A stretch of 51,775 nt of DNA, from the sequence record PP532814.1; one strand, 5' to 3'. Source of the stretch: Escherichia phage vB_EcoP_06. This document shows, piece by piece, positions 36,791 to 37,464 of this stretch; position 1 is the first letter of the stretch; each line of letters starts with the position of its first letter. The position numbers and the translations under genes are program-made. The notes beneath the pieces are model-generated. The model searched no databases. It was not told where the DNA came from and was given only the letters and a program-made list of their open reading frames with translations.

Positions 36791-36828
36791 TTGCTTTCTC
36801 CTGATGGGTATCTCGTTTCGATGTGTCT

Positions 36829-36873
36829 AATGTACCCGATCAGGACAATTCAGTTTTAACAAAAAGTGCTATT
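36829..36873 (-). promoter_or_regulatory. phage promoter box + 18 bp + -10 TACATT (minus strand), first leftward early promoter
   Basis: Reverse complement of box on plus strand (GTTTTAACAAAAAGTGCTATT). Confidence 0.5.
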
Positions 36874-37350
36874 TGCTGTCTGGTCATTATTCCATCTATT
36901 CCATTAATCAGGAATAACAGGAATAACTCATTCTCGATCACCTGGATTGTGAGACTTTGAGTTTGATCAATTTTAATCAGTTGATTAACTTTTTGTGTGG
37001 AGGGGATAGAGAAACGCGGTCCTCTTGCATCCTTTCCGGCAATCCTGGCGCGCATCTGTTATCTTGTGTTGTCGCTGTTATGCGTGTTATTCCGGCGTGG
37101 AATCGCATAACAAAAAATAACAAGATAAATCTATATAACATACTAAAAAATAAGGATTATTTATTTATATGTATCTATAAATTACTATCTGTTATGTGTG
37201 TTATGTGGGCGTATTGATACCAGATGTATTTTTGGTGATTGTATGTGGTTGTGTGTTGCATGGTATGTATATATGGGGTGGGGCGTATCCGCGCATTTTT
37301 AGATAACACGCCAAAATAACATTGATTTATAAGGAGAAAAACGAGAATCT

Positions 37351-37373
37351 TGTTGTCTTCTGAAAAGACAACA
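37351..37373. promoter_or_regulatory. perfect inverted repeat TGTTGTCTT-N5-AAGACAACA (operator-like)
   Basis: 9-bp arms that are exact reverse complements, about 35 bp upstream of the early promoter -35. Confidence 0.45.
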
Positions 37374-37404
37374 TTGAAAAACTGCCAATAACAATAAAAA
37401 ACAT

Positions 37405-37433
37405 TTGACACGCCAGGAATGGTAAATGATAAT
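37405..37433 (+). promoter_or_regulatory. strong sigma70-like promoter for rightward early genes (TTGACA-17-GATAAT)
   Basis: Consensus -35 TTGACA, 17-bp spacer, -10 GATAAT, A-rich upstream tract; about 30 bp before the 37465 gene. Confidence 0.65.
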
Positions 37434-37464
37434 GCAGCCACTGAATCACGAGAGGGTATAAAGC

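Follow-up and report, generated by a model that had tools for sequence, protein, structure and literature searches.

What function is served by the 674-bp gap between the leftward and rightward early genes of a T1-like phage? The gap occupies 36791-37464 of Escherichia phage vB_EcoP_06 (PP532814.1), whose whole 51,775-nt stretch is called the window here. The window belongs to the Drexlerviridae (Tempevirinae, Hanrivervirus) and is 94% identical to Hanrivervirus phages. The gap has no supported gene and is flanked by a minus-strand open reading frame (ORF; ATG 36790) and a plus-strand ORF (ATG 37465). We interpret it as a composite cis-acting hub that would combine divergent early promoters, a probable pac region, one of two modules of iterons with a DNA unwinding element (DUE), and the adjacent gene for a candidate binding protein; we place this composite midway between doubt and acceptance. 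The leading reading of its central module (37057-37400, site 1) and of a second copy elsewhere in the genome (site 2) is that they are replication origins, or an origin and a cis enhancer, with the chances for and against evenly balanced. The elements of the module and its copy are as follows.

37057-37090, unstranded: outer-left iteron array with TGTTAT at 37057, TGTTGT at 37067, and TGTTAT at 37076 and 37085, followed by CCGGCG.
37107-37190, unstranded: AT-rich core resembling a DUE, with inner iterons ATAACA at 37107, 37117, and 37135 and a one-mismatch site for integration host factor (IHF) at 37172.
37190-37294, plus strand: inner-right iterons TGTTAT at 37190 and 37199 and a G+T-rich tract, with CCGCGC at 37289-37294.
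37302-37404, unstranded: right iteron array with ATAACA at 37303 and 37316, an inverted pair at 37351-37373, and ATAACA at 37388 in an A-rich tract abutting the -35 hexamer.
15390-15891, unstranded: site 2, a paralogous copy of the iterons, AT core, GT tract, and promoter, between cor (leftward) and a recE-like exonuclease gene (rightward).

The anatomy of the gap, its statistics, its conservation, its duplication, and the lineage specificity of its repeats are established observations. The hexamer TGTTAT/ATAACA is present in 12 copies in the 674 bp, where the rest of the window predicts 0.64 (Poisson p ~5e-12). The copies are ordered. Four point left (37057-37085) and three point right (37107-37135) ahead of the AT core, and two point left after it (37190 and 37199). 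Beyond the G+T-rich tract there are two rightward copies (37303 and 37316), the inverted pair, and a last rightward copy at the -35 hexamer. The columns of the outer-left array are kept in both sites of several phages. TGTGTG, which a sequence-only reading of the gap had listed with TGTTAT as a repeated unit, occurs three times against ~0.35 expected, and all three copies lie in the G+T-rich tract at 37204-37290. The same reading reported an exact palindrome with 9-bp arms, and TGTTGTCTT-N5-AAGACAACA was found at 37351-37373. All the elements it listed were confirmed at their given positions, and they go beyond chance. It treated the repeats and the palindrome as separate features; all belong to a single family of iterons. 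Relatives (given here by name or L number) show coordinated changes in the two palindrome arms, TGTTAT/ATAACA in haarsle and TTGTTTC/GAAACAA in L008, which fits a protein-binding inverted iteron pair. An intrinsic terminator was rejected because the A/T-rich stem is weak (dG -9.9 kcal/mol) and neither strand has a T-run.

A duplex-stability scan identified the AT core as the least stable 60-, 100-, and 150-nt segments of the window, ~5 standard deviations (SD) below the mean. In four of four genomes (the window, grams, TLS, and SU57), no stretch is less stable than this core and its counterpart at site 2, both ~5 SD below the mean, and the core sequence is kept across lineages. Directly to the right of each core lies a tract with very few C residues on the plus strand. 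These tracts are the two G+T-richest 80-nt segments of the genome, with G+T fractions of 0.79 (37204-37290) and 0.81 (15610-15700) compared to a mean of 0.50, and they could function in strand-specific loading, priming, or R-loop formation. Three of the ten exact IHF consensus matches in the window are located in the two gaps, in the left module described below and in the site-2 core. The site in the site-1 core has one mismatch in this phage and is exact in relatives.

The second copy of the central module at 15390-15891 is the new finding, and it recurs in every relative examined. From left to right, site 2 consists of a leftward repeat-promoter, three GTTCT units, CGG, a GAACA pair, an AT core with the exact IHF consensus AATCAATAAGTTA, a GTT pair, a G+T-rich tract, CCGGCGC, a GAACA array, and TTGACT-16-TACAAT. 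Site 2 is also found in grams, TLS, SU57, and T1, and the architecture occurs twice in each relative with the sites ~21 kb apart. Sites 1 and 2 of the window, grams, TLS, L013, PHB17, and L017 align column by column with many shared columns, and genome-wide the repeat clusters occur at these two sites only. The sequence of the repeat is a property of the lineage: GTGAACA/GTTCAC in TLS, TATACAC in SU57, GTTAAT/GTTACA in T1, GTTACC in L024, TGTTCTCG (GTTCTCG) in L028 with 12-17 copies in 500 bp, GGGCGAA in L026, and TGTAAG in L027. One repeat variant is common to both sites in TLS, SU57, and T1. Because the repeat sequences are lineage-specific, a host protein alone cannot explain them, and a phage-encoded reader is implied. 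The architecture extends beyond the T1-like gene order. L026 and L027, distant phages with other terminase types, have the same gap architecture and a conserved leader, CATCGAAAC; their DUF3987 helicase gene lies ~250 bp from the gap, and small ORFs of 59-82 aa flank the gap.

Two hallmarks of iteron origins, a cluster of short repeats far above chance and an adjacent AT-rich unwinding element, are both found in the gap. The second copy and its lineage-specific repeats favor an iteron-type origin, or an origin with an enhancer, over a pac role, and opposed arrays around a DUE with a candidate IHF site match the architecture of iteron origins. The genome papers on TLS (PMC11447400) and SU57 found no origin or iterons.

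The right end of the gap leads into the gene for the candidate reader.

37405-37464, plus strand: rightward early promoter, consisting of TTGACA-17-GATAAT at 37405-37433, a leader, and the ribosome-binding site (RBS) GAGAGGG, ahead of ATG 37465.
37465-37944, plus strand: first rightward gene, encoding a DUF7174 protein (PF23796; Pfam E=8e-28), the candidate iteron-binding protein.

The near-consensus sigma-70 promoter proposed from the letters alone was confirmed as an 11 of 12 match. No other sigma-70 match with a 17-nt spacer in the window scores as high, and the TTGAC-17-ATAATGC columns are kept in seven of eight aligned sites, site 2 among them. Its position predicts that it drives the DUF7174 gene. 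That gene has the same position in T1, TLS, SU57, and grams and was found in all T1-like phages examined. The DUF7174 proteins of the window and grams are 24% identical, compared to 97-100% for eight other compared proteins, including the small terminase (TerS), TerL, the primase, the helix-turn-helix protein, both helicases, and the first leftward protein. The differences between these two phages are confined to the central module and the first rightward gene, which are swapped together; four further Hanriverviruses all have the grams-type module.

In the AlphaFold2 model of DUF7174 (pLDDT 82), long C-terminal helices come after an a-b-a-a-b-b domain at the N terminus, and this modeled domain is compatible with a winged helix. 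Structure matches are weak and fall among unrelated folds (Stn1 winged helix, 6.6; RepE, 5.4; CtsR, 5.3; pi, 4.3), and a Foldseek search with the model gave no significant match. The type of helix 3, the putative recognition helix, appears to track the repeat type. All "RQ" variants (the window, L013, and grams types, from three lineages and two DUF7174 clades) lie beside ATAACA-rich gaps with 5-13 copies, and approximately nine "RT" lineages have at most four ATAACA copies. The "RN" variant (L028) is paired with 17 copies of AGAACA and the "YN" variant (SU57) with 14 copies of TATAC. This association is suggestive; the copy threshold was chosen after the data were seen, and physical linkage is a confounder. 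DUF7174 is the leading candidate for the iteron-binding protein. The window contains no DUF7174 paralogue for site 2, and no homologue was found in plasmids. The DUF7174 gene of phage aalborv (L049, NC_049829; 36372-36842) is a recombinant. Residues 1-95 are of the grams type and the C-terminal helices are of another type, like L017. The breakpoint thus separates the putative DNA-binding half from the helical one.

The promoter and the gene behind it bring up the alternative that survives best, namely that the arrays are operators or enhancers. DUF7174 or another phage regulator would loop the DNA together with IHF, control the early promoters at both gaps and the early-to-middle switch, and regulate its own expression. 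Each copy of the module directly precedes the one rightward promoter in its region that is near consensus, the inverted iteron pair is 30-55 bp and the single iteron 0-17 bp upstream of the -35 hexamer, and DUF7174 is the first gene of its operon and belongs to a module that swaps with the arrays. However, simple operators need neither a ~90-bp core of the least stable DNA nor a conserved G+T-rich tract, the arrays reach >300 bp from the promoter, and in the distant phages without DUF7174 the architecture stays by the replicative helicase gene. We consider pure operators or enhancers unlikely, with an appreciable residual chance. The origin and enhancer roles are compatible, and both could coexist in the module.

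The left end of the gap contains a second outward promoter and an inverted repeat set.

36791-36875, minus strand: leftward promoter cassette, consisting of the repeat ATAGCACTTTTTGTTAAAA (36872-36854), a -10 hexamer TACATT (36834-36829), the leader CATCGAAACGA (36823-36813), and an RBS, ahead of ATG 36790.
36887-36927, unstranded: inverted repeat set of two TATTCC and two GGAATA(AC), including GGAATAAC twice.

A 21-nt intergenic repeat, aaATAGCACnnnTTGnTAAAA, was reported in TLS and its function was left open (PMC11447400). The gap repeat is the same element with an exact match at 36854-36872 on the minus strand. It has no mismatches to the pattern ATAGCACNNNTTGNTAAAA, has the same orientation as the downstream gene, and lies 65-83 nt from ATG 36790, in line with the ~76 nt that defines the family element. 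The pattern has 24 matches in the window compared to 2.96 expected. Cassettes lie at ~20 sites, including those at 4834(-), 26219(+), 27260(+), 30974(-), 33818(-), 35219(-), and 35716(-), and at 37951(+), 38414(+), 38951(+), and 44199(+). Every cassette is built alike and oriented with its downstream gene: a 19-nt repeat, 19-22 nt, a TATAAT-like hexamer (often preceded by TG), the leader CATCGAAACGA, an RBS, and the gene. Compared to the TLS account, each copy here precedes a -10-like hexamer by 19-22 nt and is then followed by the conserved leader. Because this hexamer and leader come after each copy, we infer that the 19-21-nt family repeat is the UP-like part of a promoter cassette. The 19-22-nt spacer is often a G+C-rich hairpin, which could terminate the upstream transcript while the cassette initiates the next one.

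Both gap promoters face outward and are conserved across the family, an in silico result that bears out the earlier description of a divergent early control region. The direct repeat GGAATAAC, noted then in two copies, is a tandem pair at 36911-36927. It is one half of the set in which TATTCC x2 at 36888-36902 is inverted against GGAATA x2. The set is kept in T1, L023, L024, L025, and L028 and is absent from TLS, SU57, and L013; it may serve the leftward promoter as an upstream operator. At gap positions 1-400, L008 (IMG/VR 3300045988_040344) has an additional ORF of ~390 bp that also runs leftward and brings a separate copy of the promoter cassette; the insertion separates the gap from the first leftward gene. 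Genes in the gap region seem to travel with their promoter cassette.

Between the leftward cassette and the arrays lies the left module, with a second palindrome.

36873-37056, unstranded: left module, the probable pac or first-cut region, single copy in the window, with an invariant block at 36982-37013.
36973-36988, unstranded: palindrome TTAATCA-GT-TGATTAA, which matches the IHF consensus WATCAANNNNTTR.

The palindrome at 36973-36988, the leftward cassette, the terminus or pac role of the gap, and the second copy at 15390-15891 are all elements beyond the sequence-only reading. The palindrome is one of only ten exact IHF consensus matches in 51.8 kb. Among T1-like phages, the corresponding gap is known to contain the genome terminus and pac, and the linear records of T1 and TLS begin at this place in the genome. 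The T1 record has a repeat_region at 1..2800 (the terminal repeat), and its ends lie in the homologous divergent gap. The TLS record starts inside the module homologous to the left module, and restriction mapping put the TLS pac at the record start (PMC11447400). The start of the SU57 record was chosen by PhageTerm and an abrupt coverage change, and it falls in the homologous module. Position 1 of each of these three records is 40-130 bp left of the first array. The record breaks of three closer relatives, in window coordinates, are at 37000 (haarsle), 37007 (G29-2), and ~37009 (PHB17). They are within 10 bp of each other and all lie in the 32-nt block 36982-37013, which is invariant in eight Hanriverviruses. 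These positions point to the left module as the probable pac region of this phage. The pac sequence of T1 and TLS was never precisely defined, and the TLS authors assigned it by resemblance to the P22 pac (PMC11447400); here, it is provisionally narrowed to the left module and the invariant block. The left module is found at 92-97% identity in 63 records and TerS at ≥95% identity in 62, essentially the same set. This co-occurrence is at the level of the genus and does not single out TerS.

The left module is absent from site 2. In T1 (L002, 100-125) and L025 (gap ~265-290), the 19-nt repeat is present once more, right at the edge of the arrays, which is also its place at site 2. Because of this placement, the ~200-bp left module, which holds the T1 record start, looks like an insertion into a site-2-like ancestor. 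T1 can reportedly initiate packaging between lambda P and Q. Comparison of the T1 gap with lambda 39.5-44.6 kb gave a best match of 13 of 14 nt, between lambda 42840 and the first bases of the T1 record, which is not above the null.

The proximity of the genome ends to the arrays (40-130 bp in T1, TLS, and SU57) would also be consistent with hexamers that serve as the pac recognition sequence. In this view, TerS would bind hexamers on either side of an IHF-bent center, and hexamer arrays around an IHF site do resemble the pac of P1. Unlike the P1 hexamers, those of the gap have no GATC, and phages with 100% identical TerS carry different central modules. Every genome has the architecture twice, ~21 kb apart, but a single pac serves packaging in T1 and TLS (PMC11447400). 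TerS belongs to the P22 gp3 family, and the TLS paper gives the P22 pac as one short sequence (PMC11447400). Array recognition by the terminase is improbable because there are two copies per genome and identical TerS proteins are found with different central modules. TerS was likewise rejected as the reader of the arrays: the window and grams have the same TerS and different modules, and the TerS identity matrix does not track the repeat type. That the repeats are a non-functional, low-complexity, AT-rich spacer between operons is scarcely credible, for although AT-rich intergenic DNA often has chance repeats and many two-copy repeat families in the gap are likely chance, the comparative data already contradict it with columns kept across subfamilies and between both sites and lineage repeats that reach 12-17 copies, in addition to the enrichment (p ~5e-12) and the ordered arrangement.

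Returning to replication origins as the leading reading, we infer promoter activity, pac cleavage in the gap, protein binding, and origin function, and these would be connected as follows. Two outward promoters would start the leftward and rightward early operons, the leftward one being the family UP-like repeat and -10 cassette and the rightward one a classic sigma-70 promoter. The terminase would make the first (pac) cut in the left module at 36873-37056, and packaging would proceed rightwards. Opposed arrays of GTT(A/C)T-type hexamers surround the unstable, IHF-bendable AT core and the G+T tract, and a phage-encoded sequence-specific protein, for which the DUF7174 product is the best candidate, would coat them. 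IHF would bend the core, and divergent transcription would add negative supercoiling. The core would then melt, and the MCM-like DUF3987 helicase and the phage primase would be loaded. Through the inverted iteron pair and the iteron beside the -35 hexamer, the array-binding protein may also control transcription of its own gene, a feature of iteron plasmids. A broader proposal is that T1-like phages and the distant DUF3987-helicase phages replicate from two paralogous iteron/DUE origins, that a fast-evolving, uncharacterized family reads the repeats (DUF7174 in the Drexlerviridae), and that protein and origin are exchanged as one specificity cassette. We advance it tentatively, as a possibility that is more doubtful than origin function itself.

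Several observations weigh against origins read by DUF7174. DnaA boxes are not enriched. Two origin-like copies per genome are unusual. The sites of this phage use partly different hexamers, GTTAT at site 1 and mainly GTTCT/GAACA at site 2, which fits poorly with a single strict reader of ATAACA. The distant phages L026 and L027 have the same architecture, and DUF7174 is absent from them. DUF7174 is physically linked to the arrays, and co-variation could partly be co-inheritance. The C-terminal winged helix of the helicase is not supported as the iteron reader; near-identical recognition helices in SU57 and L028, and in L023 and L026, are found with different repeats. The ends of the haarsle, G29-2, and PHB17 records are database record breaks and give indirect evidence of the pac cut. 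The possible replication origin of the sequence-only reading gains iteron arrays, the least stable DNA, IHF-type sites, and lineage-specific repeats, lacks DnaA box enrichment, and stands as plausible and unproven. The GC skew check that it recommended is uninformative; the skew simply follows gene orientation and does not discriminate an origin.

T1 is a classic coliphage, and the coordinates given here cover two candidate origins, a narrowed pac region, and both early promoters. A domain of unknown function, DUF7174, acquires a candidate DNA-binding role, and an unexplained 21-nt family repeat behaves like part of a promoter cassette. An origin/initiator cassette, if true, would account for why the genome ends are a recombination hot spot, could aid the engineering and rebooting of T1-like therapeutic phages, and would mean that a cassette swap could reset replication specificity within a genus.

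The surroundings of the gap are those of the genus. The 1.1 kb around it is 91-94% identical to the Shigella/Escherichia phages 2019SD1, pSf-1, egaa, vojen, and damhaus. The leftward block comprises small genes, a methylase, and the DUF3987 helicase; the rightward block of small genes extends ~9 kb up to the terminase genes (TerS at 46380-46898). An ORF inside the gap (37055-36840, minus strand), annotated in some relatives, was rejected as a gene; its variable sites by codon position are 11:10:15, which is no sign of coding. Scans of the whole window gave no Rfam matches at the gathering score and no tRNAs. Approximately 20 records labeled as C. jejuni phages (GenBank MG065636-MG065687, "Campylobacter phage ...") are 93-94% identical to this Escherichia/Shigella group and have the same TerS, and their Campylobacter host label looks doubtful. 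Shigella phage 2019SD1 (L001/L011, NC_049820) has many single-base homopolymer differences and split genes, its TerS is 89% identical with gaps, its DUF7174 gene is annotated as two pieces, and its helicase carries the name UNVERIFIED_ASMBLY in one source. The homopolymer differences and split genes are likely sequencing error.

Several known systems resemble parts of the gap. The pac of P1 has GATC-bearing hexamers under Dam control, its arrays surround an IHF site, and it is unique in the genome. The arrays here do not fit a P1-type pac: their hexamers have no GATC and the architecture is present twice. In iteron plasmids (pSC101, F/RepE, and R6K/pi), the gene for the binding protein is next to the origin, and the repeat recurs in inverted form at its promoter. 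In the origin of Staphylococcus aureus pathogenicity islands (SaPI), two iteron sets flank an ~80-bp AT-rich region, and the partner is a helicase. The gap shares with both the arrays of short repeats at an AT-rich unwinding element, with a candidate IHF site. In contrast to the plasmids, the phage has no Rep-family protein and two copies of the element per genome, DnaA boxes are not enriched, and DUF7174 is small (~150-190 aa), resembles the folds of RepE and pi weakly, and is without plasmid homologues. The homologous regions (hrs) of baculoviruses are another parallel; they are described as repeated intergenic elements, in several copies per genome, with roles as origins and as transcriptional enhancers (PMC4535591). 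The parallel is one of analogy only, as the virus, the sequences, and the proteins are unrelated. A further parallel is the satellite phage P4. The sites are ~21 kb apart here compared to 4.5 kb in P4, and the winged helix of the helicase here does not track the repeats. A comparison of this helicase with P4 alpha gave no sequence similarity (hhalign probability 0.2%). In P4, the octamer TGTTCACC surrounds AT-rich DNA in either orientation at two separate cis sites, and the P4 record annotates six copies at ori and ten at crr. The partner of the P4 sites is a phage-encoded replicative helicase, as is likewise proposed here. The arrays of TLS read CGTGAACACGTGAACAG and have the 7-nt core GTGAACA in common with the P4 iteron.

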